Positions 2,394 to 15,431 of a stretch of 18,162 nucleotides of DNA are shown here, one piece after another. A model generated the notes under the pieces. It worked only from the letters and a program-made list of their open reading frames with translations. It did no database searches and was not told where the DNA came from. Position numbers and translations under genes: made by a program. This stretch comes from an uncultured delta proteobacterium (lineage in GTDB: Bacteria; Myxococcota_A; Polyangia; Polyangiales; Polyangiaceae), in NCBI GenBank assembly GCA_963763745.1, contig CAVXQJ010000001.1, positions 258,431 to 276,592 on the forward strand. The letters run 5' to 3'. How positions within the stretch are numbered: position 1 is the first letter of the stretch; the number at the start of each line of letters is the position of its first letter.

Positions 2394-3059
2394 ATGAATT
2401 CGGCGGACTTCACCGCACAAGCCGTGCGCCTCCACGATCGATATTTGCTCGAGGTGGTGGAGCCGCTCGGTCTTTGTCCGTGGGCGCGGCGCGCGCGGCT
2501 CGATGGACGAACGCGCCAGCACGTCGTCCTCGACGACGCCGAAGACGCCGCGCGCGCGAACACGACGAAGATCATCGCGACGTGGGCGGCAAACGACGTC
2601 GTCGACGTCGGCTTCGTGATTTTCCCTCGCCTCGAAATCGCTCGCCCCGCGTTCGATCGCTTCGTCGCGAGCGTGACGGAGCACGAGTCGTCGATTCACG
2701 CCGTTGGCTCCGTGCCGTTCGTGATGGCCGCGTTCCATCCACGCGCGCGCGCCGACACGAACACGCCCGAGCGTCTCATCCCGTTTTTGCGGCGCACACC
2801 CGACCCGTGCATTCAGCTCGTGAGGTCGAAGGTGCTCGACGCCGTCCGCGCGAACACGCCGCAAGGCACGAGCTTCGTCGACGCCGCCACGTTCGACTTC
2901 GACGTCGAGGGTAAAAGCGCACGCGACGAAATCCCGCTGCGCGAGCGCATCGCGCGCGCGAACCTCTCCACGATCACGAAGCTCGGTTTGCCCGAGCTCG
3001 AACGCCTCCTCGACGACATCCGCGCCGACCGCGATCGCACGTACGCCGCGCTCACCTGA
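2394..3059 (+). CDS. Conserved hypothetical protein (CPWA-motif family, possibly DUF1415-like)
   Basis: 221-aa ORF with coding-like GC3 bias and no low-complexity Arg runs. Motifs LGLCPWARRARL and FVMAAFHP resemble a small conserved bacterial family I recall with a CPFA/CPWA motif; I cannot verify this without a search. It is divergent from the LysM gene (only 25 nt apart) and its 3' end overlaps the convergent FG-GAP gene by 8 nt. Confidence 0.6.
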   Translation: MNSADFTAQAVRLHDRYLLEVVEPLGLCPWARRARLDGRTRQHVVLDDAEDAARANTTKIIATWAANDVVDVGFVIFPRLEIARPAFDRFVASVTEHESSIHAVGSVPFVMAAFHPRARADTNTPERLIPFLRRTPDPCIQLVRSKVLDAVRANTPQGTSFVDAATFDFDVEGKSARDEIPLRERIARANLSTITKLGLPELERLLDDIRADRDRTYAALT

Positions 3060-4704
3060 ACGTGAACGCACCGCCAGCACCGCCCGCCGAAGCGTTGCTC
3101 GGATCGCCGTTGATGCCCGTCGCGTTGCTTGGGTCGCTCACGCCGCCGACGGCGAGCGCCGCGGCGTTGTTCGTGATCGCAACGCTCAACCCGAAATTGT
3201 CAGCGTGTGCGAACGACGATTTCACGTACGCCGTTTGTTGCCACACGCTCGCGACCGGCGTGAAGGTGTAGACGGCTCCGGCATTCGCGACCGACGTATC
3301 GCCTTGTCCGGGCGACGTGTTGTTGACGCCGGTCGCTGCGCTCGTCTCGCCCGTGCTGCCGACGGCCAGCGTGTTGCCGTCGACCGACAGCGAGACACTC
3401 GTGCCGAAGGCGGCCGATCCGCGTGTGTTTGACGACTTCACGTATGCGGCTTGTGTCCACGTCGAGCCCGCTCGCGTGAAGAGATACGCGGCGCCCGAGT
3501 TGTTCGCGCTCGTGTCGCCTTGTCCGGGGCTCGTGTTGTTCACGCCGGTTGCGCCGCTCGATTCTCCGGAGCTTCCGACGGCGAGCACCGTTCCGCCAAC
3601 GCCACCGAGCGCGACGCTCTTTCCGAAGAGCGCGTTGGTGCGCGTGTTCGACGCTTTGATGTACGCGGTCTGCGACCAGATGCTCGACGACTTCGTGAAG
3701 ACGTACGTCGCGCCCGCGAATGCCGCGGACATGTCGGTCGAGTTGATGCCGACGCCCGTGGCGCCGCTCGCTTCGCCCTCCGAGCCCACCGCGAGCTCGG
3801 TGCCGTCGTTCGAGAGCGCGACGCTCCACCCGAAGCGGCCACCCGCTTGCGTGTTCGAGGGCTTCACGTAGTGGGTCTGGGTCCAGTTGCCGCCGCTGTA
3901 TGCGTAAAGATAGGCCGCACCCGCGAAGGAGAAGTTCGCGTTGGCTGCTCCGCCGGAGCCCGTGGTCACGCCCGTGTCGGACGCCGTCTCGTCGATCGCG
4001 CCAACCGCGGCGGTGTTGCCGTCACCCGACATCGCGACGCTGTAACCGAACTGCGCGCTCTGCTGGATGTTCGATGCCTTGAACGGACCGTCGGTTTGCG
4101 ACCAAGTCTGGCTGAGACCGTTGCCGTTCGCGCTGAAAAAGTAGACAGCGCCCGATCCCACTTGGGTCGTGCTCTCGCCGCGCGCGCCGACGATCATGTG
4201 GCTCCCATCCGACGCTGATGCCGAAGTTCGCATTCGCCGTCGTGTTCGACGCTTTGATGTAGGCGATTTGAGACCACGCGTTGTTCACGCGCGTGAAGAC
4301 GTACACCGCGCCCGCTGCGGACTTGCTCGTGTCGCCTTGACCAGGGTTCGTGTTGTTCACGCCGGTCGCGCCGCTGGTCTCTTGCGACGAGCCGATCGCG
4401 AGCGTGTTGCCATCGGCCGAGATCGCGATGCTCTGTCCGAAGCCCGCGCCGGCGCGTGTGTTCGACGCCTTGATGTAAGCGTCGGCGACCGAAACGTGCG
4501 GTGGGGGTGCGGCGTCGGCGTCACCGCCGTCGTTGTTGCTTGATCCGTCCGTGCCCGAGTCGCTCGTCGTGACATCGGCGAGTGCCGTGTCCGAGGTTGC
4601 GTCGGCAGCGGCGTCAGGACCGGGCACGACACTCGTGTCGCCGACGCAGGCGCTCAGCGCACCACCAACAACCACGAGCGAAAGAAGAAATCGTTTGAAC
4701 GCCA
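3052..4704 (-). CDS. FG-GAP/integrin-alpha-like beta-propeller repeat lipoprotein (single gene split by an apparent 1-nt frameshift near 4215-4225; printed as ORFs 4022..4759 and 3052..4233)
   Basis: The start ATG at 4702-4704 is preceded by a perfect SD AGGAGG (4709-4714 on minus). It opens MAFKRFLLSLVVVGGALSAC with lipobox LSAC. It is followed by an Asp/Ser-rich linker, then at least 7 repeats of about 70 aa with consensus GAAYVFT..WSQ.AYIKASNT....FG.SVA.S.DGNTLAVGS..E.SGATGVNNTSPGQGDTS. The repeat phase continues exactly across the frame change: ..ANANFGISV in one frame, SDGSHMIVGARGE.. in the next. Nucleotide-level internal repeats occur at about 3290, 3520 and 4330. Confidence 0.75.
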
Positions 4705-4708
4705 TCCG

Positions 4709-4714
4709 TCCTCC
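4709..4714 (-). promoter_or_regulatory. Shine-Dalgarno AGGAGG for the FG-GAP lipoprotein gene
   Basis: On the minus strand aggaggACGGatg; a perfect SD 4 nt from the ATG at 4704. The printed (frameshifted) kinase ORF would read through it, which supports the corrected kinase stop at 4746. Confidence 0.6.
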
Positions 4715-6096
4715 TAAGTCACGAGCCAGCATCGACACCTTAACATCATTTCTCCGCAACGCTCGCGTCGCGGTCGCGATCGCCGCCGACGTCCATCGTC
4801 ACGTCGAGCGTCTCCGTCGCGCCCGCGGTGATCGACACGCGGCGCGTTTGAGGCGGCGCGGTCGGGTGCGTGAATTTCGACGAAGTGCACGCCGGGCGCG
4901 AGCGGGATCGCGCGCGCGACCGGCGTGACGGCTGCGCGCTGACCATCGATTGCGACCTCCGCCCACGGCGTCGCGAGGACGCGCAAGAAACCCGGCTTCG
5001 CGGGAAGAAGCGGACCCTCGGTCGCGGCGGACGCTTGCTCCGCGCTGCGATCGGTCGCGTGGATCACGGCGAGCGCGGACACGAGCGCCGCACCGAAGAG
5101 CGCGAAGCTCCATGGCGACATCGTCAGCGGACGGCGCGGCTCGCTCGCGCGCACGAGCGACGGCACTTCGCCCGACACCAAACGCGCCGACGCGAGCGCG
5201 CCTCGCACGAGCTGCCGCATCGGAAGCTCGGTGCGCGAACGCACGAACTCGGTGAGCTCCTCGGCGACCACGTCCGCGGACATCGGCCTGTCCGCTGGAT
5301 GCTTCTCGATGCAGCGCATGACGACGCGCTCGAGCGCGCGCGGAACGTCCGGCGCGCGCTGGCGCAGCTGCACGGCCGGGCTCGTTCGCGACGCGTGCGC
5401 GGGCGCGCGCTTCTCGCCGGGTCGATCGAACGGACGCACGCCGCACAAGAGTTGATACAAGACGACGCCGAGCGAGAAGAGATCGCTCGGCGCGCTCGCC
5501 GCTTCGCCGAGCAGCTGCTCCGGCGCCATGTACGCGGGCGTTCCGAACGCGCCGGGCTGCGCAGTTCCTCGTGCCGGCGTCTCGTTGTCGAACGCGGGGA
5601 TTGGCTCGTCCGCCGAAGGAAGCCGCTCGCGATGCGCGATGCTGAAGTCGACGATCTTCACCTCGCCTTGTCGCGACAAGATCACGTTCGCCGGTTTCAC
5701 GTCGCGATGAATCACGCCGCGCTCGTGCGCGTGCGCGAGCCCCTCCGCCACCGCCGCGCCGATCGCCGCGACCATCTCGGCGCGCAGCTTCGGCTTCTTC
5801 GCGAGGAGCTCCGAGAGCGAGAAGCCCGAGATGTACTCGAGCACGAGATACATCTGGGTCTCCGACTTCACGTAATCGAGGAGCAAGACGATGTTCGGAT
5901 GCGACAGTCCCGAGAGCACACGCGCTTCGCGTTCGAGCTGCGTCGCGAACGTCGATGACGGCGGGATCGTTCCCTTCAACGCTTTGATCGCGACCTTGCG
6001 ACCAAGCGGCTCTTGCGACGCGAGATACACCGTGGCGATCGCGCCCGAGCCGAGCTCGGAGATCGTTTCGTAGCTTCCGAATCGCGGCAGCTCCAT
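4714..6096 (-). CDS. Hanks-type Ser/Thr protein kinase with one TM helix and a C-terminal extracytoplasmic PEGA domain (3' end frameshifted; the corrected stop would be at 4746)
   Basis: MELPRFGSYETISELGSGAIATVY.., VAIKALK, HRDVKPANVIL, DFS (DFG variant), GTPAYMAPE. TM helix WSFALFGAALVSALAVIHA, then a PEGA-like segment PGFLRVLATPWAEVAIDGQRAAVTPVARAIPLAPGVHFVEI. At about 4873-4880 (aattt) the PEGA consensus continues in the +1 frame (THPTAPPQTRRVSITAGATETLDVTMDVGG.. stop at 4746), while the printed frame runs into an Arg-rich tail that overlaps the SD of the next gene. The start ATG (6094-6096) overlaps the gpmI stop in ATGA. Confidence 0.85.
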   Translation of the reverse strand: MELPRFGSYETISELGSGAIATVYLASQEPLGRKVAIKALKGTIPPSSTFATQLEREARVLSGLSHPNIVLLLDYVKSETQMYLVLEYISGFSLSELLAKKPKLRAEMVAAIGAAVAEGLAHAHERGVIHRDVKPANVILSRQGEVKIVDFSIAHRERLPSADEPIPAFDNETPARGTAQPGAFGTPAYMAPEQLLGEAASAPSDLFSLGVVLYQLLCGVRPFDRPGEKRAPAHASRTSPAVQLRQRAPDVPRALERVVMRCIEKHPADRPMSADVVAEELTEFVRSRTELPMRQLVRGALASARLVSGEVPSLVRASEPRRPLTMSPWSFALFGAALVSALAVIHATDRSAEQASAATEGPLLPAKPGFLRVLATPWAEVAIDGQRAAVTPVARAIPLAPGVHFVEIHAPDRAASNAPRVDHRGRDGDARRDDGRRRRSRPRRERCGEMMLRCRCWLVT

Positions 6097-7632
6097 CAGC
6101 GTGTGAGCAGCGGAATGCCCGTCATCGCGGCGGGCTGAGGAAGACCGAGGAGCGCGAGCATCGTCGGCGCGACGTCGCAGATGCGTCCGCCGCTTCGAAC
6201 GTGCGCGCCCGCGTCGGCGTCGTTGACGTAGAGGAGCGGCACGGGGTTCAGCGTGTGCGCGGTGTGCGGCTCGCCCGTCGCGGGATCTTTCATGAGCTCG
6301 CAGTTTCCGTGATCCGCCGTGATGATCACCGCGCCGCCTTTCTTCCGCGCTGCATCGACGATCGCGCCCACTTGCGCATCGACTGCTTCGACCGCGTGAA
6401 TCGCCGCGTCGAGCACGCCCGTGTGGCCCACCATGTCCGGGTTCGCGAAATTCACGAGCACGAAATCGAATCGATCCGATTCGATCGCGCGAACGACCGC
6501 TTCACCAACGCCCTTTGCGCTCATCTCGGGTTTCTTGTCGTACGTCGCGACGTCCTTCGGCGATGGGATCATCGCGCGCTCTTCGCCCGCGAACGGCTCC
6601 TCGCGACCGCCGTTGAAGAAGTACGTCACGTGCGCGTATTTCTCGGTCTCCGCGCAACGGAACTGCGTGAGCCCGGCGCGCGCAATCACTTCGGGGAAGA
6701 TGTCCGTGAACGTCTGTTTCGGAAACGCGATGGGCAAACCGAACGACGCGTCGTACGTCGTCATGCATCCATAGCGACCCGCGAACGGCGCGCCGGCATG
6801 GGGTGCGCGCGGGAAGCCGTCGAACTTTTCGATCGCGAGAGCGCGCGTGAGCTCGCGCGCACGGTCTGGACGAAAGTTGCAGTGCTGCGCGGAGTCCTTT
6901 CCGATCTCGACCCCCGCGTAATCGCCGACGACGAACGGCTCGACGAACTCGTCCGTCTTGCCCGCAGCGATCGACGCTTCGATTCCAGAAACCGCGCTCT
7001 CGTGGCGCGGGCCGAGCGCGAAGACGATCGCGTCGAATGCTTTTTGAACGCGCTCCCAACGGTTGTCGCGGTCCATCGCCCAGTAGCGCCCGCTCACCGT
7101 TCCGATTCGACCTTTTCCCGCGAGATGCTTCTCGAGCTCGGCGATGTACCTCGGCGCCGTCTTCGGTTGCACGTCGCGCCCGTCCAAAAATGCATGCATG
7201 ATGCAACTAACGCCGCGCGCGTGCGCCGCGTCGATGACGGCCATGATTTGCGTGAGGAGCGAGTGGACGCCGCCGTCGGAGCAGAGGCCGAAGAGGTGGA
7301 GCTTTCCGCCGCTCGCCTTGGCTTGCTCGATGCGATCCGAGAGGACCGCGTTCTTGCCGAGCGAGCCATCGAACACCGCGTTGTCGATGCGCGAGATGTC
7401 CATCATCGCGATGCGACCCGCGCCGAAGTTCAAGTGGCCGACTTCGCTGTTTCCCATTGGCCCGGCGGGAGGCCGACGTCGGGCCCGCTCGTGCCGATGA
7501 GCCCGTGCGGATTTTCGAGAAGAGCTCGGCGAGGCGCGGCGCCTTCGCGAGTCGCACGGCGTTGTCGGCCGCCTCGGCGCGCTCGCCGAAGCCGTCCAAA
7601 ATGACGAGCACGAGTGGCCGCGGACGTTTCAT
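6096..7632 (-). CDS. gpmI: 2,3-bisphosphoglycerate-independent phosphoglycerate mutase (iPGM); reading frame broken twice near the 5' end by 1-nt homopolymer deletions
   Basis: The N-terminus MKRPRPLVLVILDGFGERAEAADNAVRLAKAPRLAELFSK (ATG 7630-7632) is in the frame of ORF 7207..8733. The next conserved block NPHGLIGTSGPDVGLPPGQ is in a second frame. MGNSEVGHLNFGAGRIAMMD onwards is in the third frame (ORF 6096..7457) and runs through canonical iPGM motifs to the C-terminus (ITADHGNCE..). The junctions fall at the T-runs gattttcg (7511-7518) and cattgg (7455-7460). Confidence 0.9.
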
Positions 7633-7658
7633 CGCGGCGAAAATATCATCAATCGGCA

Positions 7659-8764
7659 TCAAAACGGGAGGACGTCGGTTGGTATCGCGCGCGACTCGAA
7701 CGTTCCGTCGCCGAGCTGACCGCTTTGGTTGCTGCCCCAGCACACGATGCGCTCGTCCGAGAGAATGGCGCACGAATGAAACGAGCCGCACGCGATGGCG
7801 GTCGCGCCGCTCGCAATCGCAGTGACGGGCTTGGTCGACGAAGCGGTCGTCCCATCGCCGAGCTGGAACGTGCTGTTCGCGCCGAAGCAAACGACGGCGC
7901 CCGTCGCGAGGAGCGCGCACGTGTGCGAATCGCCCGCGCAAACGTCCACGACTCCGCTCGTCAAGCTTCCGTCGCCGAGCTGGCCGGCTGCGTCGAATCC
8001 GAAGCATGTGAGCGCGCCGGCCGCGACGATGCACGTGTGTGTGCCGCCGAGCGCGATCTTCGACGGCGCGCTCGCGTTCGTTTTCGTCGGCACACAAACG
8101 GTCGACGTCTGGCCGTCGCCGAGCTTTCCGCTGTCGTCGTCTCCCCAGCACATGAGGCCGCTCGTCGTGATCGCGCACGCATCGAACTCGAGACCGAGCG
8201 CGATCGATGTCGCGCCCGTGACGCCGTTCGCGACCGGCGTGAGCGCGTTCGTGATGTCGTTGTTTCCGAGCGCGCAATATCCGCCCTGACCGAAGCAGCG
8301 CACGCTTCCATCGAGCGCCACCGCGCACGTCGTTCCGTAACCCGCCGCGATCGCCGCAGACGGCGGGAGTGCGATGGGCGTGGTGATCGCGTGCGACGCG
8401 TTCGTGCCGTCGCCGAGCTGCCCGAATGCGTTTTCGCCGAAGCAATACGTCGCGCCGGCCGACGTGATCGCGCACGCGTGATCGACGCCGACGGAGAGCG
8501 CCGTCACCGCGGCGAGCGAAAACGCGACGGGCTTCGGTTGATTTCCTCCGAAGAGTTGACCGAAGCACGCGAGCGCGCCGCTCGAACGCACCGCGCAAGT
8601 CGTCGCCGCGCCGGCGCTGACGAGCGGCGTTGCGTTCGGCGGGCGAGCCGCTTCTGCGGAGAGCGCGTCGTGCGACGCGTCTTGTGCCCCATCGAGCTCG
8701 GTGCGCGATCCACACGCGACGAACAGGACGCACACGCCGACGTGCGCGGCTCTCGATTCTGACA
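7659..8764 (-). CDS. RCC1-repeat (regulator of chromosome condensation-like) beta-propeller lipoprotein
   Basis: ORF 7659..8852; the preferred start is GTG 8762-8764 (VSESRAAHVGVCVLFVACGS, lipobox-like FVAC), because ATG 8852 would overlap the divergent rnhA. There are about seven RCC1 repeats with the hallmark C(F/W)G.N..GQLGDG (CFGENAFGQLGDG, CWGDDDSGKLGDG, CFGFDAAGQLGDG, CFGANSTFQLGDG, CWGSNQSGQLGDG). It ends 26 nt upstream of gpmI. Confidence 0.8.
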
Positions 8765-8781
8765 CTCCACCATAGTATCCA

Positions 8782-9453
8782 ATGTCGATGCCGTGGAAGG
8801 AGGCCTCGCTACGCGGACAGCGCGTGCTCGCGCGCGTGAAGGCCGACGGCACGCTCGACGAAAAAGAGAGCCGCGTGGAGATTCGCTATCGCGAAACCGA
8901 TGGTCGCGCGTACCACGCGCGCGCGGCGAACCTCGTGGTCGCCAAGGACGCGAAGGTGATGTCCGACGACACGTGCGCCCCCGCGGACAAACCGAAGGCG
9001 AAGACGGCCAAAGCGCCCGAAATAAACCATGCAGACTACAAGGATTCGTGGATCGCCTACACGGACGGCGCGTGCACGGGAAATCCCGGGCCCGCGGGGA
9101 GCGGGACGATCGTCATCGCGCCCAGCGGAAAGATCGCCGAGTCGTATGCGTACCTCGGCGAAGGGACGAACAACGTCGCCGAGCTGACGGCGATCGAGAA
9201 GGCGCTCGAGCGAACGCCGCGCGAGGAGTCGCTCGTGCTCCACACCGACAGCCAGTACGCGATCGGCGTTCTCACGAAGGGATGGAAGGCGAAGGCGAAC
9301 ACCGACCTCATCGCGCGCATTCGCAAAGCGCTCCACGGCCGGCGCGTGCGGTTCGTGTATGTGCCGGGTCACGCGGGCGTTCCGATGAACGAGCGCGCCG
9401 ACGAGCTCGCGCGCGAAGCGATCAAGACGCGCTCGAGCTCGCGCGCGGAGTGA
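8782..9453 (+). CDS. rnhA: Ribonuclease HI with an atypical ~90-aa N-terminal extension
   Basis: The C-terminal 140 aa match the RNase H fold signature: IAYTDGACTGNPGPAGSG, GTNNVAELTAI, LHTDSQYAIGVLTKGWKAKAN, VPGHAGVPMNERADELAREA (the DEDD catalytic residues are in place). The N-terminal region MSMPWKEASLRGQRVLARVKADGTLDEKESRVEIRYRETDGRAYHARAANLV is coding-like but does not resemble the canonical hybrid-binding domain. Confidence 0.9.
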   Translation: MSMPWKEASLRGQRVLARVKADGTLDEKESRVEIRYRETDGRAYHARAANLVVAKDAKVMSDDTCAPADKPKAKTAKAPEINHADYKDSWIAYTDGACTGNPGPAGSGTIVIAPSGKIAESYAYLGEGTNNVAELTAIEKALERTPREESLVLHTDSQYAIGVLTKGWKAKANTDLIARIRKALHGRRVRFVYVPGHAGVPMNERADELAREAIKTRSSSRAE

Positions 9454-9457
9454 CGAC

Positions 9458-10495
9458 GTGAAGACGCGCGATCGAGTGATTTCCGTCGCGCTCGTGGGTG
9501 GGATCATCGCGTTCATTTGGTGGGGTGGGTCGCATTTGCGAAACGTGACGGCCGTGGCGGACGCCGCGCCGAGCGCGAGCGGATCGTCGTCAGCGCATCC
9601 CGTTGCGAATGCGAGCGCGAGCGCATCGGCGAGCGCGTCCGCATCGGCGAGCGTCGCGATCGCGGACGCCGCGCCGCCGCCGATTTCCGGCGCGTGCAAG
9701 ACGATGAACGACGCATCGACGAAGAAGCTCGACGACGCGAGGACAGCACGCCCGTGCACGTCGTCGTTCGATCTCGCGATGCTCGGATGCCGGACGTCGC
9801 AGAACGGCGCGACGTGGGGCCTGCGCGTCGACGACGTCGTCGATCTCGGAACGAGCGACGCAGGCGACTGCGACACGGGATGGCTCGTGCGCCTCGTGCA
9901 CCTCGACGTGAACGGCGCGGAGAACGCGATGGTGCCCGGCCTGTCGTCGACGAAGCTCGCGCATACGTACGACGTGGATGCGATCACGCGGCTCGAGGGC
10001 GTCGCGTTCTTCGATTGGGACGGCGACGGCGAGGATGAAGTCTTCGTTCACTCGGTGCGTCCGTTCGAGAGACGGAGCGGCGTGTGGACGTTCAAGAGCG
10101 GCGATGGCGGCTCGCGCGTCGCGCCGTATGCGCCCGCCGCGCCGTTCGATGCGTCCTCCGTTCGCGACGTCGACGGCGACGGGCGCCCCGATTTGATCGT
10201 GAAGCTCCCCTTCGGCTCGCACGAATTCGTCGCGCACTCGCTCTCCGACGGAACGTTCACCGCGCACGACGCGATCGCCGTCGCGTTCGCCGAGAAGCAA
10301 TGTCCGACCGATCCCGCGCTCGATCTCGCGACGATCGACGACGCGACCGCCGAAGCCATCGCGTGCAAGCTCGTCTGGGGTCACGACCCGAAGGCGATCG
10401 ACGCCGACGTGACGAAGGCGTGCGGCCAAAAAGGGCTGTGCCCCGCGTGGACGGCTCGAATCGCGCGATCGAAGGCGCCGCTTTCGCTGCGCTGA
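9458..10495 (+). CDS. Membrane-anchored hypothetical protein with a Ser/Ala/Pro-rich linker and FG-GAP-like Ca-binding loop motifs
   Basis: GTG start 4 nt after the rnhA stop. N-terminal signal-anchor helix VISVALVGGIIAFIWWGG, then the low-complexity linker SASGSSSAHPVANASASASASASASASVAIADAAPPP, then a Cys-containing domain with DxDGDG loops (FFDWDGDGEDEVFV, VRDVDGDGRPDLIVKL) typical of FG-GAP/VCBS repeats. No confident family assignment is possible. Confidence 0.6.
   Translation: MKTRDRVISVALVGGIIAFIWWGGSHLRNVTAVADAAPSASGSSSAHPVANASASASASASASASVAIADAAPPPISGACKTMNDASTKKLDDARTARPCTSSFDLAMLGCRTSQNGATWGLRVDDVVDLGTSDAGDCDTGWLVRLVHLDVNGAENAMVPGLSSTKLAHTYDVDAITRLEGVAFFDWDGDGEDEVFVHSVRPFERRSGVWTFKSGDGGSRVAPYAPAAPFDASSVRDVDGDGRPDLIVKLPFGSHEFVAHSLSDGTFTAHDAIAVAFAEKQCPTDPALDLATIDDATAEAIACKLVWGHDPKAIDADVTKACGQKGLCPAWTARIARSKAPLSLR
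9608..9655 (+). repeat. Imperfect (GCGAGC/GCATCG)n microsatellite encoding (Ala-Ser)n
   Basis: gcgaatgcgagcgcgagcgcatcggcgagcgcgtccgcatcggcgagc, with 6-nt and 12-nt periodicity, inside the linker of the 9458..10495 protein. Confidence 0.7.
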
Positions 10496-10517
10496 ACGGC
10501 GCGCTAGAAAGCACGTC

Positions 10518-11309
10518 ATGCCGTCGATCTTTCGGCCCGGCTTGTTCGAGAATCGCGTCGCCATCGTCACGGGTGGCGGGAGCGGGATCGGCTTCGCCAT
10601 CGCGCGCGATTTGGGGATGCTCGGCGCGAAGGTCGCCATCGCGAGCCGCAAACAAGAGCGCATCGACGCGGCCAAGGCCGAGCTCGCGAAGGCGGGCGTC
10701 CACGTTTTCGGCGCCGCGTGCGACATCCGCGAGACCGAACAGGTCGCCAAGCTCGTCGATACGGTGATGAAGGAGCTCGGGCCCATCGACGTCCTCGTGA
10801 ACAACGCGGGCGGGCAATTTCCGACCGCCGCCGAGAACCTCACGACGAAAGGTTGGGACGCGGTCATCCGCAACAACCTCAGCGGCACGTTCTACATGAC
10901 GCAAGCCGTCGCGACGAAGTCGATGATCCCGCGTAAAAAAGGGCGGATCGTGAACATCATCGCGAACGTCGCACGCGGATTTCCCGGGATGATCCACACG
11001 GGCGCGGCGCGCGCGGGCGTCGAGAACATGACGAAGACGCTCGCGGTGGAGTGGGCGCAGTACGACATCCAAGTGAACGCGGTCGCGCCGGGCGTGATTC
11101 GATCGAGCGGCGTCGATCAGTACCCGCCCGAGATCGTCGAGATGAGCCGGCAGCGGACGCCCGCGAAGCGTCTCGGCACGGTCGACGAGGTGAGCGATTT
11201 GGTGGTCTACCTGGCGAGCGACGCGGCGTCGTTCGTGACGGGCGAGACGTGGTACATCGACGGCGGCGCGCATTTGTGGGGCGACACGTGGATGATTCCA
11301 GACCGGTGA
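10518..11309 (+). CDS. SDR-family NAD(P)-dependent oxidoreductase (enoyl/dienoyl-CoA reductase-like)
   Basis: Rossmann motif VAIVTGGGSGIGFAIA, NNAGG, and an SDR active-site region with GAARAGVENMTKTLAVEW; length 263 aa. The stop TGA 11307-11309 overlaps the GTG start of the next gene. Confidence 0.9.
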   Translation: MPSIFRPGLFENRVAIVTGGGSGIGFAIARDLGMLGAKVAIASRKQERIDAAKAELAKAGVHVFGAACDIRETEQVAKLVDTVMKELGPIDVLVNNAGGQFPTAAENLTTKGWDAVIRNNLSGTFYMTQAVATKSMIPRKKGRIVNIIANVARGFPGMIHTGAARAGVENMTKTLAVEWAQYDIQVNAVAPGVIRSSGVDQYPPEIVEMSRQRTPAKRLGTVDEVSDLVVYLASDAASFVTGETWYIDGGAHLWGDTWMIPDR

Positions 11310-13234
11310 CACCGCCTCCCGAGGCGAGCAAGACGACCTTCAAGGAGAAGGTGCGCGCGCTCGGCTCGCGCGTGTGGGCGAAGCTCCGCGGTTGGTGCGT
11401 GACGTACTTCATCGACGACCCGCTGACGTTCGTCGCCGCGCTCGTTCCGCTGTGTTTCTTGTCGATTGCACTCTACACGCGTCACCCGCGGACGAATTTC
11501 ATCTTCGACGAACAAGAGGCGCTGCTCGCGAATCCGTACGTGCGCTCCGTCGCCGATCCGCAATCGCATCTGCATTGGCTCGACGCATTCCGCCGCGACT
11601 TTTGGGGGCTCCCGCACGATCGCACGATCGGATCGTATCGGCCGCTTCCGGATCTCGTGTGGCGCGCGTTCTGGGGCGTCGGCGCGCGCGAGCAGAGCCC
11701 GTTCTTGCATCACTGGGTGAACGTGCTCCTCCACGGCGTGAACGGCGCGCTCGTGACGGTGATCGGGCTTCGCCTGACGAAGGATCGCTTGATCGCGTGG
11801 CTCGCGGGCGGCGTGTTCGTCGCGGCGGCGGTCGTGACGGAAGCGGTGAGCGGCGTCGTCGGTCTCGCGGACGTGCTCGGCGCGCTCGGCGCGCTCCTCG
11901 CGCTGTGCTCGCTCGCGCTTCCGATGTGGGCGATGCCGTTCGCGGTCGCCGCATCGACGCTCTTCGGTTTGTACTCGAAGGAGAGCGCGCTCTGCATCGT
12001 GCCGATGGTGCCGTTCGCGGCGCTCTTCGTCTCGGACCTCACGCACCCGAAGCGCCCGATGCGCTGGGTGCGTTGCGCGCTCGCGGCGATCGCCACGACG
12101 GCCGCGTTCGTCTTCTACGTGGAGCAACGCCGCCGCATGTTCCCCGCGACGCTCCCGCCGGATCTCTCCATCGAAGCAAACCTCGGCAAACCGTGGGCGA
12201 CGCGCTTCTACCACTCTCTCCTTCGTTGGTATGCGCAGCCGATCTTGCCGAAGGATCCGCTGAACAACCCGCTCGTCGACGCGACGGGCCCGCAGCGCGT
12301 CGCGGCAGGTTTCCGCGTGTACTCGCGCGGCATCGGCGAAGTTCTCTTTCCGTATCACTTGTCCGGCGACTACTCGGCGCCGCAAGAACCCATTCCGTCG
12401 CGGCTCGTTTTTCCGGAGAGCATCACGGGCGCGCTCGCGCTGCTCGGCCCGATCGTTGGCGCGCCGATTTTGGGCTGGATGGGCGTGCGAAAGAAGAAGC
12501 CGCTCTACGCGATCGCGGCCGTCGCGATGATGTGGATCGTCGTCAGTTATTTTCCGGTGTCGAACATTCCCATCGTGCTGCCGACGGTGCGCGCGGAGCG
12601 CTTCTGGTACTTCCCGGTGATCGGCACGAGCTTCTTGCTCGCGTTCTTCTTCGCGTGGGTGCTTCGCAGGACGCGCGCGCGAAACCGCGCGTGGCTCGGC
12701 GTCGCCATCGTCGCGGGATTTTTTCTGTGGCAATCGATCGCCGCGCGCGCGCACGCCAACGACTACACCGACGATTTGGTTTTCTGGAACGCGACGCGCT
12801 TCGCCGTTCCGAACAGCGCGAAGGCGCACCTCAATTACTCCGTGATGAAAGGCGCGCGCGGCGATCTCGAAGAGCGCCGAAAAGCCAACGTGCGCGCTCT
12901 CGAGCTCGCCCCGAATTGGCCCATGGCGAACATCTACCTCGGCGACACGCTCTGCCGCATGCACCGCGCGCAAGAAGCCTGGCCGCACTACAAACGCGGC
13001 TTCGAGCTCGCGCCCGGCGATCCGAATTTGATTTCGCTCGCGCTCCAATGCTTGTGGGACGAAAAATATTATTCGACCGTCGCCGACGAGCTCGCTGAGA
13101 TGGGCGCGGCGCAGCCCGGCTCGTGGCTCGACTTCTTGCAGCGCGACATGTCCGACCACGGCGAAGAGCACAACGGCGTCGATCCGAAATACCGCCCGCG
13201 CGGATACAACGAAGGCCCGAAGAACGAAAACTGA
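11306..13234 (+). CDS. Polytopic membrane GT-C glycosyltransferase-like protein with C-terminal TPR repeats (PMT/TMTC-like, DUF1736-type)
   Basis: In the frame of ORF 11051..13234, but the portion upstream of 11306 overlaps the SDR gene and is Arg-rich. The proposed start is GTG 11306-11308, which overlaps the SDR stop in GTGA. About 10 predicted TM helices. The first loop carries FIFDEQEALLANPYV (the DE motif used by GT-C PMT-type enzymes) and FWG....YRPL (a DUF1736/TMTC-like motif). C-terminal TPR-like helices (ANVRALELAPNWPMANIYLGDTLCRMHRAQEAWPHYKRGFELAPGDPN). Confidence 0.7.
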   Translation: MTPPPEASKTTFKEKVRALGSRVWAKLRGWCVTYFIDDPLTFVAALVPLCFLSIALYTRHPRTNFIFDEQEALLANPYVRSVADPQSHLHWLDAFRRDFWGLPHDRTIGSYRPLPDLVWRAFWGVGAREQSPFLHHWVNVLLHGVNGALVTVIGLRLTKDRLIAWLAGGVFVAAAVVTEAVSGVVGLADVLGALGALLALCSLALPMWAMPFAVAASTLFGLYSKESALCIVPMVPFAALFVSDLTHPKRPMRWVRCALAAIATTAAFVFYVEQRRRMFPATLPPDLSIEANLGKPWATRFYHSLLRWYAQPILPKDPLNNPLVDATGPQRVAAGFRVYSRGIGEVLFPYHLSGDYSAPQEPIPSRLVFPESITGALALLGPIVGAPILGWMGVRKKKPLYAIAAVAMMWIVVSYFPVSNIPIVLPTVRAERFWYFPVIGTSFLLAFFFAWVLRRTRARNRAWLGVAIVAGFFLWQSIAARAHANDYTDDLVFWNATRFAVPNSAKAHLNYSVMKGARGDLEERRKANVRALELAPNWPMANIYLGDTLCRMHRAQEAWPHYKRGFELAPGDPNLISLALQCLWDEKYYSTVADELAEMGAAQPGSWLDFLQRDMSDHGEEHNGVDPKYRPRGYNEGPKNEN

Positions 13235-13240
13235 GAAGGA

Positions 13241-14683
13241 CTACTTCGAGGTGGCGGCGACGAGCGTGGTGGAGGTCCAGTAGACGCTCGTGGCGTCGAC
13301 GGCGACGAAGCGCAGGTCGCCTTGGTTCGTGGCCAGCGTCTTCGAGATGCCGCCGCTGACGGGGAGGCGATGGATGCTGCCGTCCGTCGCGCCCCAGTAA
13401 AGCGCAACGCCGTCCGTGACGAGGTTCGTTGCGATCTTCTCGTTCGTTGCGAGCGTGGTGGGCTGTGCGGTGCCCGTCTTCGGGTGCGACTGCACCTCGA
13501 GGCCCAGGCCGATCCAGTAAATCGAATTTGCGTCCTGCGCGATTTCCATGGCGTCCACGACTTCGAACGTCTTCGCGGTCGCGTTCTGCTGATCGATCGG
13601 CGCGGACCAGATCTCACCGGTGAAGTCGGCGAGGTAGATCGTGGTCGAGTCGACGGCGGCCGAGAGCGGATCGTTCAGCGACGTGATCGTCACGGGTGCG
13701 GCCGAGCCGTCCGTGACGACGCGACCGGCGAGCGCGCCCGTCGAGTAGTACGCGTAGCCTGCGCTCGTCGTCAGCGTCTGCACGCCCGACAACGTCGCGA
13801 GCGTCGATACGGTGCCGCCCGTGAGAAGCTGCGATTGAATCAGCGTGTTGACGTGGAGCCACACGATGCGCCCCGAGTCGATGGCGAGCGCGGTGGCTTG
13901 GTTGTCGGCGTAGACGAGCTGGGCGGTGCCACCGCCAATGGGGACCTTCTCGATTCCGCCGTTCGTGCTCGATTGATTGACGAAGTAGACGAAGCTCGAA
14001 TCGACGGCGAGCCCGCCGAGCTGCCCGGTCGCGTAGGTGATGATGGGACACACGCCTGCCGTGCACGTCCCGTTGCCGCCGCACACGCGGTTGCAGACGC
14101 CGCAGTTCCCGCTGCTCGTTTGCAAATTCGCTTCGCACCCGTTCGAGCCGACGCCGTCGCAGTCGGAGAACGGCGCGATGCATTGCGAGCTGCACTGACC
14201 CTTCGAGCAAATCGGCGTCTCGTTCGCGCCGGTGGTGCTGCATGGCGTGTTGCAGTCGCCGCAGTGTTGCACGTCGTTCTGCGTGTCGATGCAGTCCGTG
14301 CCGCACGTCGTGAGTGGGCAAACGCACGTGCTGTTCGAGCAGAGCGATCCGTGGCTGCACGCGTTCCCGCACGAGCCGCAGTTGGTCGTGTCGGAGGAGA
14401 GATCCGCGCAGAACGCGGCGCCCGACGTCCCGCACGCGACCTCGGATTTGCCGGGGCACGTCGTGCAAAACGATTCGGAGCAGAGCTGGTTTTGCGCGCA
14501 CGCATTTCCACACGAGCCGCAGTTGAAACGATCCGATGACACATCGACGCACGCGCCGTTGCAGACCGTCAGCGGCCCCGCGTCGCAGCTCGAGCCCGCG
14601 TCGTCGGTGTACGTGACGTCATAGGTCCGACACGCGCCGAACAGCACGACGATCGCCACCACCGAATTTCGCACCCACGCCAC
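13241..14683 (-). CDS. Secreted Cys-rich repeat protein (Myxococcus-type CGSCGNAC repeats) fused to a YWTD-like beta-propeller
   Basis: Signal peptide MAWVRNSVVAIVVLFGAC. Six or more Cys-rich modules (FNCGSCGNACAQNQLCSESFC, TNCGSCGNACSHGSLCSNSTCVC, QHCGDCNTPC, GNCGVCNRVCGGNGTCTAGVC), then propeller blades marked by VYFV, IVWL, IYLAD, IYWIG, LYWGATDGSIHRLP, VYWTS. It is convergent with the TMTC-like gene, 6 nt apart. Confidence 0.75.
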   Translation of the reverse strand: MAWVRNSVVAIVVLFGACRTYDVTYTDDAGSSCDAGPLTVCNGACVDVSSDRFNCGSCGNACAQNQLCSESFCTTCPGKSEVACGTSGAAFCADLSSDTTNCGSCGNACSHGSLCSNSTCVCPLTTCGTDCIDTQNDVQHCGDCNTPCSTTGANETPICSKGQCSSQCIAPFSDCDGVGSNGCEANLQTSSGNCGVCNRVCGGNGTCTAGVCPIITYATGQLGGLAVDSSFVYFVNQSSTNGGIEKVPIGGGTAQLVYADNQATALAIDSGRIVWLHVNTLIQSQLLTGGTVSTLATLSGVQTLTTSAGYAYYSTGALAGRVVTDGSAAPVTITSLNDPLSAAVDSTTIYLADFTGEIWSAPIDQQNATAKTFEVVDAMEIAQDANSIYWIGLGLEVQSHPKTGTAQPTTLATNEKIATNLVTDGVALYWGATDGSIHRLPVSGGISKTLATNQGDLRFVAVDATSVYWTSTTLVAATSK

Positions 14684-14804: not shown

Positions 14805-15431
14805 ATGAAAAAGCTCTTCCTCTTCGCCGCTCCGATCGCCGCGCTTGCGTGCTTCGCGTGCTTCGTGTCGCCGCCATCTTCGAGCACGTCGTCCACCACG
14901 ACGGGTCAGGCGCTCGCGACGTCGCTCGCGTGCGCGTCGTGTCATGGCTCCGACTTCTCGGGATCGGAATCGCCGATCGCGCCGGGCGTCTACGCCGCCA
15001 ACCTCACGCCCGACATCGCGACGGGTCTCGGCTCGTGGAGCGACGACGACATCACGCGCGCGATTCGCACCGGTCAAGACGATCAAGACAGCGCGCTGTG
15101 CGCGAAGATGCCGCGCTTCTCCACGCTCGCGGATGATCAAGCGAGCGCGCTCGTCGCGTACCTGCGATCGCTTCCAGCGATCGCACACGACATCCCGGAG
15201 AGCGAGTGCGACGCGCCACCCGATCTCGACGACGGAGGACCCGGCGACGGCGGCGTCGACATCGTCACGGACGACGCGCCTTCGTGCGAAGGCTTCGCCG
15301 ACCCCAACACGACGGCGACGTGTCACGCGTGCTCGAGCGGCCAAGCGTCTTGTCAGCACAACGGCTGCTTCGGCGGATACTTCTGCGACCTAGCAGCGCT
15401 GCATTGCGTCCCAAAGCCGAGCGGATGTTGA
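14805..15431 (+). CDS. Secreted or lipoprotein c-type cytochrome (class I) with a C-terminal Cys-rich extension
   Basis: Signal peptide MKKLFLFAAPIAALAC. Heme-binding CASCH (CXXCH). Met ligand in MPRF. Class I cytochrome c tail LADDQASALVAYLRSLPA. A C-terminal ~70 aa follows with 8 Cys (SCEGF..TCHACSSGQASCQHNGCFGGYFC..HCVPKPSGC). Confidence 0.8.
   Translation: MKKLFLFAAPIAALACFACFVSPPSSSTSSTTTGQALATSLACASCHGSDFSGSESPIAPGVYAANLTPDIATGLGSWSDDDITRAIRTGQDDQDSALCAKMPRFSTLADDQASALVAYLRSLPAIAHDIPESECDAPPDLDDGGPGDGGVDIVTDDAPSCEGFADPNTTATCHACSSGQASCQHNGCFGGYFCDLAALHCVPKPSGC

Follow-up and report, generated by a model that had tools for sequence, protein, structure and literature searches.

A four-gene string in Polyangia encoding a putative TMTC-like GT-C glycosyltransferase and its recurrent SDR partner

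Introduction

Do four closely spaced bacterial genes, for an RNase HI, a membrane protein with a Ser/Ala/Pro-rich linker, an SDR and a GT-C enzyme with TPRs, form a dedicated protein O-glycosylation module? They lie in an 18,162-nucleotide stretch of DNA (the whole of which is hereafter referred to as the window), and the first-pass annotation had read them as a candidate for such a module, with the linker as a candidate substrate. Disordered, Ser/Thr-rich regions are known targets of actinobacterial and fungal PMTs, and it was this activity that gave rise to the substrate idea. To our knowledge, the function of TMTC-type GT-C enzymes is known only from animals, as in the mannosylation of cadherins, although bacteria have many proteins resembling them. 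A survey of the literature on bacterial DUF1736/TMTC-like enzymes and on myxobacterial O-glycosylation retrieved no experimental work and, for bacterial DUF1736, only the TMTC sequence-analysis paper. The results presented here only partly support the reading of the string as an O-glycosylation module.

Results

Organization of the four-gene string

All four ORFs are present on the same strand, as initially annotated (Table 1). The genes for RNase HI and the membrane protein are separated by 4 nt (9454-9457), and the genes for the membrane protein and the SDR by 22 nt (10496-10517), whereas the SDR and GT-C genes overlap by 4 nt (GTGA, 11306-11309; a spacing of -4 nt). Each of the four products is full length by comparison with its homologues. 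A promoter scan identified no promoter-like site, and a terminator scan returned terminator-like sites at the level expected for shuffled sequence. The four co-directional genes probably constitute an operon-like, co-transcribed unit.

Table 1. Positions of the four genes and of features within their products.
Feature	Position	Strand	Remarks
RNase HI	8782..9453	+	First ORF of the string
Membrane protein with linker	9458..10495	+	Second ORF; type II anchored, predicted periplasmic; TM helix (residues 3-27), disordered linker, propeller, helical tail
Ser/Ala-rich low-complexity linker	9542..9694	+	Residues 29-79 of the membrane protein; from composition
SDR	10518..11309	+	Third ORF
GT-C with TPRs	11306..13234	+	Fourth ORF
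Eleven-helix GT-C transmembrane domain	11306..12769	+	Predicted periplasmic loops: large first (residues 59-130), fourth (279-369)
D68-E69, GT-C loop-1 acidic pair (predicted catalytic)	11507..11512	+	Within invariant TNFIFDEQEALLANPYVRS
C-terminal TPR domain, predicted periplasmic	12752..13171	+	About 4 repeats, residues ~483-622, then conserved tail NGEEHNGVDPKYRPRGYNEGPK

The first product matches the Pfam model RNase_H (PF00075; 4.1e-27, residues 90-214) and is an RNase HI, with the DEDD catalytic residues D95, E134, D156 and D207, together with H197, visible in the translation. A conserved N-terminal extension of 89 residues precedes this domain and has no Pfam match. Of 72 related loci, 32 have the RNase HI gene ahead of the SDR/GT-C pair with the same orientation, making it a frequent, but not universal, neighbor of this pair. 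It looks like an inherited upstream neighbor, with no evident functional tie, rather than a partner.

The GT-C enzyme

The fourth product is 100% identical to a public protein of 642 aa (P0001), with an agreeing start. Its fold was taken from structure because Pfam and NCBIfam scans yielded only marginal TPR matches, and sequence and profile searches against PDB retrieved TPR proteins only. The predicted structure has 11 long helices before residue 488, followed by eight paired helices of the TPR type (490-622), and structure comparison of this model placed it within the multi-pass membrane fold of the GT-C superfamily. The positions of the Lys/Arg-rich loops (158-161, 247-256, 393-399 and 457-464) suggest that loop 1, the DUF1736-like loop and the TPRs are periplasmic, giving 11 TM helices and a probably extracytoplasmic C-terminal TPR domain. 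The TPRs were recovered by phmmer against PDB (OGT, 1w3b, E 4e-7, residues 499-571) and by hmmsearch against PDB TPR proteins, and they are the sole non-membrane domain detected in the GT-C, with 44 family members scanned. The tail that follows them is also conserved in these 44 members, with G619, G624, V625, P627, Y629-R632, Y634, N635 and G637-K639 invariant, and H622, D626, K628 and G633 at least 90% conserved.

Positions 11504-11512 encode the FDE sequence of loop 1 (F67-D68-E69). Neither D68 nor E69 varies among the 44 family members, and the two line up with the DD of a relative that carries DUF1736, in keeping with a GT-C loop-1 acidic pair; the counterparts of this pair are TMTC motif M1, D55/E56 in ArnT and D77/E78 in Pmt (PMC7801869). 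The TMTC motifs described in the same work include M1 (DD), M2 (SHKSYRP), M4 (KE[T/Q]xxT), M5 (DW) and M7 (ERxxY). The equivalents of M1, M2, M4 and M7 are invariant across the 44 members (D68-E69, S110-Y-R-P113, K225-E226-S227 and E431-R432-x-x-Y435), and the M5 equivalent, D355-Y356, has an invariant Asp preceded by a Ser conserved in at least 90% of them. The enzyme thus carries M1, M2, M4, M5 and M7, with two deviations, DE for DD and DY for DW, both conservative; M3 (RxD) is matched only partially, by D189. The conserved motifs of the GT-C bear on donor binding, not on the class of acceptor (protein, lipid or glycan).

The family models were less informative. PF08409 (TMTC_DUF1736) did not match the window GT-C at E values of up to 10, and a single member of the 44 gave a faint match (E 0.32). 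The link to this model is transitive: with scores of 39.8 bits for P0300 and 31.2 bits for P0310, two distant relatives exceed the 27-bit cut-off, and P0300 aligned to the GT-C family profile with a probability of 99.8, consistent with full-length, profile-level homology to bacterial proteins with TMTC_DUF1736 and TPRs. PF02366 (PMT) did not match the window GT-C at E values of up to 10, PMT and MIR were absent from the 44 members at E values of up to 1, and PMT_2 (PF13231, ArnT-type) matched neither the GT-C nor any of the 44. The description of this protein as a PMT/TMTC-like GT-C enzyme with an FDE loop and TPRs therefore holds for the TMTC-type GT-C, the DE motif and the TPRs, but not for PMT membership; the family-model check proposed for it recovered the TPRs, through PDB proteins, but neither PF02366 nor, other than transitively, PF08409.

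On the basis of the predicted model and the motifs, the fourth gene encodes a putative divergent bacterial relative of the animal TMTC O-mannosyltransferases, an 11-TM GT-C with about four predicted periplasmic TPRs. Like TMTC1-4, the animal ER protein O-mannosyltransferases, it has eleven TM helices followed by TPRs of presumed extracytoplasmic location, an acidic pair in loop 1, and SYRP, KES and ERFWY where the TMTCs have SHKSYRP, KE[T/Q] and ERxxY; its DY lies in the long TM7-TM8 loop, the site of the TMTC DW, and it has profile-level homology to bacterial proteins above the Pfam TMTC_DUF1736 threshold. It differs from them in the lack of a Pfam DUF1736 match, in DE rather than DD and DY rather than DW, in having only about four TPRs and a conserved C-terminal tail after them, in an apparent translational coupling to an SDR, and in its donor, which in a bacterium would be a polyprenyl-phosphate rather than a dolichyl-phosphate compound. 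With the PMT/POMT enzymes (GT39, including actinobacterial Pmt) it shares the DE of loop 1, but it has no PF02366 match and carries TPRs in place of the MIR domain. It also differs from ArnT, the GT83 enzyme that transfers aminoarabinose to lipid A, in that it has no PMT_2 match, ArnT has no TPRs and there are no arn genes nearby. The protein would thus be an enzyme of a known kind, though a divergent representative of it.

The SDR and its pairing with the GT-C gene

The third product matched the Pfam model adh_short_C2 (2.4e-58), human PECR (1yxm; E 1.5e-66, residues 4-262), with roughly 50% identity over the aligned residues as judged by eye, and 6lln, a "citronellol catabolism" dehydrogenase (E 3.3e-65). 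Its orthologues are named citronellol/citronellal dehydrogenase by JGI. It has the cofactor motif TGGGSGIG, and its segment GFPGMIHTGAARAGV aligned with GFPLAVHSGAARAGV of PECR; the active-site segment reads HTGAARAG instead of the classical YxxxK, and this atypical HxGAARAG is common to PECR, placing the protein in the PECR type. It is thus predicted to be a cytoplasmic SDR of the classical PECR/AtuB/DECR type, a type of NADPH-dependent enoyl or terpenoid reductase. It resembles PECR and the AtuB-like terpenoid dehydrogenases in full-length alignment and the shared HxGAARAG, but differs from both in its genomic setting, which is coupled to a membrane glycosyltransferase and has no link to beta-oxidation or atu genes. 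No similarity to the extended sugar-nucleotide SDRs was found: the only Pfam matches were adh_short and adh_short_C2, and the top NCBIfam and PDB matches were enoyl, ketoacyl or alcohol reductases. The earlier suggestion that the SDR tailors the sugar donor consequently finds no support in homology. The closest characterized relatives of the SDR use acyl-CoA or terpenoid substrates, and an unrelated metabolic role may exist despite the coupling.

The SDR gene lies directly upstream of the GT-C gene in 57 of 72 species-level loci, all of them from one order-level group (Polyangia) and hence not independent counts, usually with an overlapping or near-touching stop and start. At 54 of the 57 junctions, no more than 22 nt separate the first possible GT-C start from the SDR stop, with an overlap at 12. 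Given this recurrence, the tight junction is not a chance arrangement, and the two genes appear to be translationally coupled. In the family tree, they are also adjacent in the most deeply diverging branches. The 15 loci in which no SDR adjoins the GT-C did not form a separate paralogue clade, as they were interleaved in the tree with SDR-bearing loci. Outside the Polyangia group, a sister GT-C family has no SDR neighbor.

The linker protein and the variable slot

The second product carries the linker string SASGSSSAHPVANASASASASASASASVAIADAAPPP directly behind an N-terminal hydrophobic helix, as noted in the first-pass annotation. Its linker (13 Ser, 1 Thr, 19 Ala and 5 Pro in residues 29-79) is predicted to be on the periplasmic side and disordered (AlphaFold pLDDT <50, residues 30-65), and part of its coding DNA is an imperfect 18-nt tandem repeat (9611-9653, 2.4 copies). 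The globular part is a partial beta-propeller that contains Cys and has FG-GAP-like loops of the form DxDxDG (FG-GAP_3 Pfam match, 5.5e-7), followed by a helical tail; a structural search with the globular domain gave no informative match. Linker length is conserved across the family (47-57 aa), with a Ser+Thr content ranging from 8 to 43%. This content is 18-43% in the locus-linked copies and 8-17% in a Ser/Thr-poor clade, of which only two of six members could be placed (P0142 and P0144), both off-locus and in unrelated contexts. The Ser/Thr-rich linkers of the locus-linked copies favor the substrate idea, as one lead. Several other exported proteins of the window also have Ser/Ala/Asp/Pro-rich linkers behind a membrane anchor, so the linker is not a specific pointer.

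The anticipated conservation of the gene trio across genomes was not observed. An HMM search detected the membrane protein in only three of 80 species loci, ruling out a diverged linker protein hidden in the others. The membrane protein has 40 homologues, versus more than 1500 for the GT-C. Members of the GT-C family are 50-80% identical whether the linker protein is present or absent, and in the closest relatives (L001 and L002, with GT-C enzymes 79% identical) RNase HI directly adjoins the SDR, with no linker protein between them. The slot before the SDR gene is empty in nine loci, contains the linker protein in three and contains a WlbB-like nucleotide-sugar N-acetyltransferase in 13; this acetyltransferase provides an independent context for a glycan role. 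Transferase and candidate substrate were thus not co-conserved in the 80 species loci, as a cis-encoded enzyme-substrate module would require. The gene for the membrane protein was inserted, lineage-specifically, into a variable slot of the operon; its product may be one substrate of the GT-C within its own lineage, but is not the reason for which the enzyme exists.

Discussion

We consider it somewhat more probable than not that the functional core kept by evolution consists of the last two genes, SDR and GT-C, with the four-gene unit built around it, and that the GT-C acts in the periplasm, most probably on exported envelope proteins. Judging from its motifs, the GT-C would draw on a polyprenyl-phosphate-sugar at the periplasmic side of the membrane, taking one sugar from it, with loop-1 D68/E69 acting on the acceptor or a metal, and S110-Y-R-P113, K225-E226, D355-Y356 and E431-R432...Y435 making up the site for donor, phosphate and metal. 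The TPR domain would present the acceptor for the sugar, most probably Ser/Thr of those envelope proteins, and our best guess for the target of the SDR is the isoprenoid or lipid-linked portion of the donor. The nearest precedent for such a pair is mycobacterial dprE2-aftA, in which an SDR finishes the decaprenyl-phospho-arabinose donor and its gene immediately precedes the GT-C gene whose product uses this donor. The window differs in having no DprE1-like oxidase and an SDR that is PECR/AtuB-like, and AftA has no TPRs. Neither a polyprenyl-phosphate glycosyltransferase (GT2) nor a flippase could be seen in the ORFs that were inspected or scanned, with the scan extending to 15431, two kinase ORFs aside.

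Three other explanations were weighed against this SDR/GT-C core. A non-protein acceptor (lipid A/LPS core, a glycolipid or an envelope polysaccharide, as for ArnT, AftA/AftD and PimE), with the TPRs docking the GT-C to envelope machinery and the SDR and WlbB-like acetyltransferase in the same glycan pathway, is unlikely but deserves consideration. The DE of loop 1 resembles that of ArnT, and the WlbB-type acetyltransferases found in the slot of 13 species are enzymes of LPS/O-antigen sugars; nevertheless, the motifs as a full set, and the combination of 11 TM helices with TPRs, fit TMTC rather than ArnT/Aft, PMT_2 has no match, and the window contains no other LPS or polysaccharide genes. We regard as rather improbable a dedicated O-glycosylation module in which the GT-C modifies the Ser/Ala/Pro-rich linker encoded two genes upstream and the SDR tailors the donor. 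The TMTC-like character of the GT-C and its predicted periplasmic TPRs would suit such a module, as would the disordered, apparently periplasmic linker and the location of every cluster-linked copy examined (window, L003, L004, L012, L081, L083, L090 and L091) in one and the same slot, with RNase HI on one side and the SDR on the other. The higher Ser+Thr content of the cluster-linked linkers points in the same direction, but this contrast depends on two independent cases outside the locus, and lineage composition may account for it. The rarity of the membrane protein, its absence from L001 and L002 and the equal conservation of the GT-C without it argue against the module, as do the similar linkers in other exported proteins of the window and the PECR type of the SDR; moreover, animal TMTCs are reported to target folded cadherin domains, not mucin-like linkers.

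The genes might also owe their order to inheritance only, as four unrelated housekeeping and envelope genes on a shared transcript. RNase HI, for which no role in glycosylation is conceivable, is nonetheless frequently co-linear with the pair, the loci compared share an order-level origin, and the sister GT-C family lacks an adjoining SDR. However, the SDR/GT-C junction has kept its overlap or short spacer despite insertion, loss and rearrangement of the neighboring genes, and such constancy is expected of a selected pair, not of passive synteny. We therefore find inherited order alone very doubtful, and return to the SDR/GT-C pair as the functional core.

A bolder extension of the SDR/GT-C core would be a TMTC-type protein O-glycosylation system of Polyangia based on the two-gene unit, in which the reductase supplies the lipid-linked donor, by making or tailoring it, the periplasmic GT-C uses it and one subclade has captured a cis-encoded substrate with a Ser-rich linker. 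The reductase might do so by saturating or reducing either the carrier polyprenyl or a keto-sugar attached to a lipid, by analogy with dprE2-aftA. In this complete form, the scheme is highly improbable. The locus provides a GT-C family missed by the Pfam and NCBIfam models scanned, assigned by structure and motifs, together with a conserved reductase partner and, in a few lineages, a candidate substrate. Confirmation as a protein O-glycosyltransferase would extend TMTC-type glycosylation to bacteria and give a handle on the glycosylation of myxobacterial envelope proteins. Even without it, about 1,500 proteins named "TPR repeat" or "hypothetical" would be re-annotated as GT-C glycosyltransferases.

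The four-gene string and its gene calls

The window (G+C ~66%) includes genes for Ser/Thr kinases and an MXAN_6577-like Cys-rich protein, together with four genes displaying operon-like packing. The kinase and Cys-rich protein genes, together with the best database matches, indicate Polyangia (Myxococcota) as the source. The spacing claimed in the first-pass annotation (4 nt, 22 nt, then a GTGA stop/start overlap) was read from the sequence, as were the Ser/Ala linker and the F-D-E triplet (11504-11512) that it quoted. All four products were covered end to end by homologues, and a 642-aa public protein is 100% identical to the gene 4 product, with the same GTG start; the four gene calls are therefore sound. 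Apparent frameshifts were found in an iPGM gene and an FG-GAP_2 lipoprotein gene, and genes 1-4 were free of them.

Features of the string and of its neighbours in the window
Feature	Position	Strand	Remark
ORF with FG-GAP_2 repeats	3052-4233	-	overlaps next ORF
ORF with FG-GAP_2 repeats	4022-4759	-	overlaps preceding ORF
iPGM (phosphoglycerate mutase) gene	6096-7650	-	two frame changes needed within ~60 nt, in 7440-7650
RCC1-repeat lipoprotein gene	7659-8852	-	between iPGM and RNase HI
RNase HI ORF (gene 1)	8782-9453	+	ORF call
RNase HI N-terminal extension	8782-9048	+	residues 1-89
Linker membrane protein ORF (gene 2)	9458-10495	+	ORF call
SDR ORF (gene 3)	10518-11309	+	ORF call
GT-C ORF (gene 4)	11306-13234	+	ORF call
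GT-C C-terminal tail	13160-13231	+	residues about 619-642
Stig1/MXAN_6577-like Cys-rich repeat protein gene	13241-14683	-	convergent to GT-C, 6 nt from its stop
Cytochrome c gene	14805-15431	+	next after Cys-rich protein

Gene 4 encodes a divergent relative of TMTC-type transferases

Ordinary annotation tools did not recognize the gene 4 product, so its identity was settled by structure and profile comparison. Pfam and NCBIfam scans yielded only a marginal TPR match for the window protein and 43 of 44 relatives, and PDB searches, by sequence and by profile, matched the TPR part alone. A confident AlphaFold model (pLDDT 81, pTM 0.81), for which 44 relatives supplied the alignment, has a GT-C fold with 11 membrane helices followed by ~4 TPRs, an architecture shared with TMTC, in which 11 membrane helices precede extracytoplasmic TPRs. 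An exhaustive profile search with the family recovered 185 representative clusters at E 1e-30 or better. Farther relatives, such as the proteins P0300 and P0310, matched Pfam TMTC_DUF1736 above threshold and also carry TPRs. Comparison of the family with P0300 by hhalign (probability 99.8, E 1.2e-29, 469 columns, 28% identity) gave an alignment spanning the loop-1 motif through the TPRs. The TMTC motifs DD, SHKSYRP, KE(T/Q), DW and ERxxY, defined by Eisenhaber et al. (PMC7801869), all have invariant counterparts in the family (44 members): D68-E69, S110-Y-R-P113, K225-E226-S227, D355-Y356 and E431-R432-F-W-Y435, respectively. The protein thus agrees with TMTC in motifs, architecture and profile-profile comparison, but is not matched by Pfam DUF1736. 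We rate it as a divergent, distant homologue of the TMTC-type GT-C transferases, predicted to work alike, and the GT-C glycosyltransferase call of the first-pass annotation is upheld by the fold model, the motifs, the TPRs and the alignment with P0300. A PMT (GT39) identity was rejected in the absence of a PF02366 hit and a MIR match, as was an ArnT-type PMT_2 identity in the absence of a PF13231 hit. Literature searches found no experimental work on bacterial TMTC-like members.

The loops rich in Lys/Arg (158-161, 247-256, 393-399 and 457-464) point to the cytoplasmic side; by the AlphaFold model and the sequence, the TPRs would then be periplasmic, as would loop 1 and the long loop between TM7 and TM8. 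The active site would be periplasmic, the donor a polyprenyl-phosphate-monosaccharide, and the sugar would be moved to Ser/Thr of exported proteins recognized by the TPR domain. Neither a donor-making GT2 nor a flippase was evident in the ORFs that were read or scanned; the scan extended to 15431, the two kinase ORFs aside. The TPRs are followed by a strongly conserved tail, NGEEHNGVDPKYRPRGYNEGPK, in which most residues are invariant across the 44 relatives; the last residues of the protein (632-642) have low confidence in the model.

Conservation of the SDR/GT-C pair

A scan with one genome per species identified 305 loci encoding GT-C. The best 80 were fetched, all from Myxococcota, mainly Polyangiaceae and Labilithrix, and 72 of these had at least 1.2 kb of upstream sequence. 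The SDR gene lay directly upstream of GT-C, on the same strand, in 57 of the 72. The junction is also conserved: the first possible GT-C start was no more than 22 nt from the SDR stop in 54 of these 57 loci, with an overlap in 12. In a neighbour-joining tree of GT-C, the pair was present in the deepest branches, and SDR-less loci were interleaved with SDR-bearing ones, which implies several losses. Ten SDR-less loci were inspected (L026, L028, L040-L042, L047 and L052-L055), with upstream genes called from ORF translations alone; an NtrC-type response regulator preceded GT-C in some (L041, L042, L047 and L053-L055) and an MFS-like membrane protein in some (L040, L042 and L053).

The gene 3 product is a classical SDR rather than an extended sugar-nucleotide SDR. 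It aligned over its full length with human peroxisomal trans-2-enoyl-CoA reductase (PECR; E 1.5e-66, about half of the aligned residues identical by eye) and also with a dehydrogenase labelled 'citronellol catabolism' (E 3.3e-65); its orthologues are named citronellol/citronellal dehydrogenase at JGI. An unusual HxGAARAG segment, shared with PECR, replaces YxxxK. The suggestion that the SDR tailors the sugar donor finds no support in homology. The substrates of its relatives are enoyl-CoAs and isoprenoids. To our knowledge, only mycobacterial dprE2-aftA offers a precedent for an SDR gene placed immediately ahead of a GT-C gene. On the basis of this precedent and these relatives, our working guess is that the SDR may act on the lipid-linked donor or on the donor's isoprenoid carrier.

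RNase HI (Pfam 4.1e-27) retains D95, E134, D156, H197 and D207 and is catalytically complete. Of the 72 loci, 32 carry its gene upstream in the same orientation, one deep branch included, and the gene is usually divergent from iPGM. Inheritance as a co-transcribed neighbour is the best explanation for its presence. The N-terminal extension is conserved across related loci and had no family match in a Pfam scan.

The linker protein and the variable slot

Gene 2 encodes a type II membrane protein with a single N-terminal helix followed by a disordered linker of 47-57 residues. The first-pass annotation proposed an O-glycosylation module in which the GT-C modifies this linker. The trio is not conserved. 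The slot between RNase HI and SDR is variable: it was essentially empty in 9 loci and contained the linker protein in 3, a hexapeptide-repeat acetyltransferase of ~200 residues in 13 and larger inserts in 5. L001 and L002, the loci most closely related to the window (GT-C 79% identical), have no linker protein, and the linker protein family comprises 40 members, versus more than 1500 for GT-C. GT-C is therefore kept independently of the linker protein. Ser/Thr/Ala/Asp/Pro-rich linkers after anchors are also common among the exported proteins of the window (e.g. the 4022-4759 lipoprotein, the cytochrome c and the RCC1 lipoprotein), making the linker a weak pointer by itself. In favour of the proposal, the locus-linked copies, all in this slot (window, L003, L004, L012, L081, L083, L090 and L091), have 18-43% Ser+Thr in the linker, versus 8-17% in a sister clade, the two placeable members of which (P0142 and P0144) lie in unrelated neighbourhoods; this is the difference that the substrate hypothesis would predict, in a small and phylogenetically non-independent sample. 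We consider the module, with the linker as substrate, to be at most a lineage-specific possibility, and an unlikely one. The features that merit experiment are the coupling to the SDR and the Ser-rich protein encoded in cis at some loci.

Among structural relatives, the slot acetyltransferase comes closest to WlbB (3mqg, E 1.4e-45), an N-acetyltransferase of LPS sugars. This WlbB/WxcM/QdtC-like nucleotide-sugar N-acetyltransferase occupies the slot in 13 species (L015, L016, L024, L034, L038, L039, L044, L045, L046, L049, L050, L056 and L068), and L019 has a copy downstream of GT-C. In L081, an extra gene (7171-7845) between those for the linker protein and SDR encodes a 224-residue lipoprotein-like product with an Asp/Ala/Pro-rich linker.

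Neighbouring genes

The pieces of iPGM lie in three frames ('...LAELFSK', then 'NPHGLIGTSGPDVGLPPGQ', then 'MGNSEVGH...'), whereas the L083 orthologue has a single uninterrupted frame; the window copy is a pseudogene or else carries indel errors from assembly. A single lipoprotein gene, broken by a frameshift near 4200, seems to account for the two FG-GAP_2 ORFs, and the DADAAPPP end of its linker resembles the DAAPPP end of the gene 2 linker. The longest ORF of the RCC1 lipoprotein gene overlaps the RNase HI start. None of the 80 related loci has this gene here; in them, iPGM and RNase HI are adjacent and divergent. The gene is therefore a lineage-specific insertion. The cytochrome c has a Ser/Thr-rich segment after its anchor, and in the closest relatives its gene and that for the Cys-rich repeat protein are likewise kept downstream.
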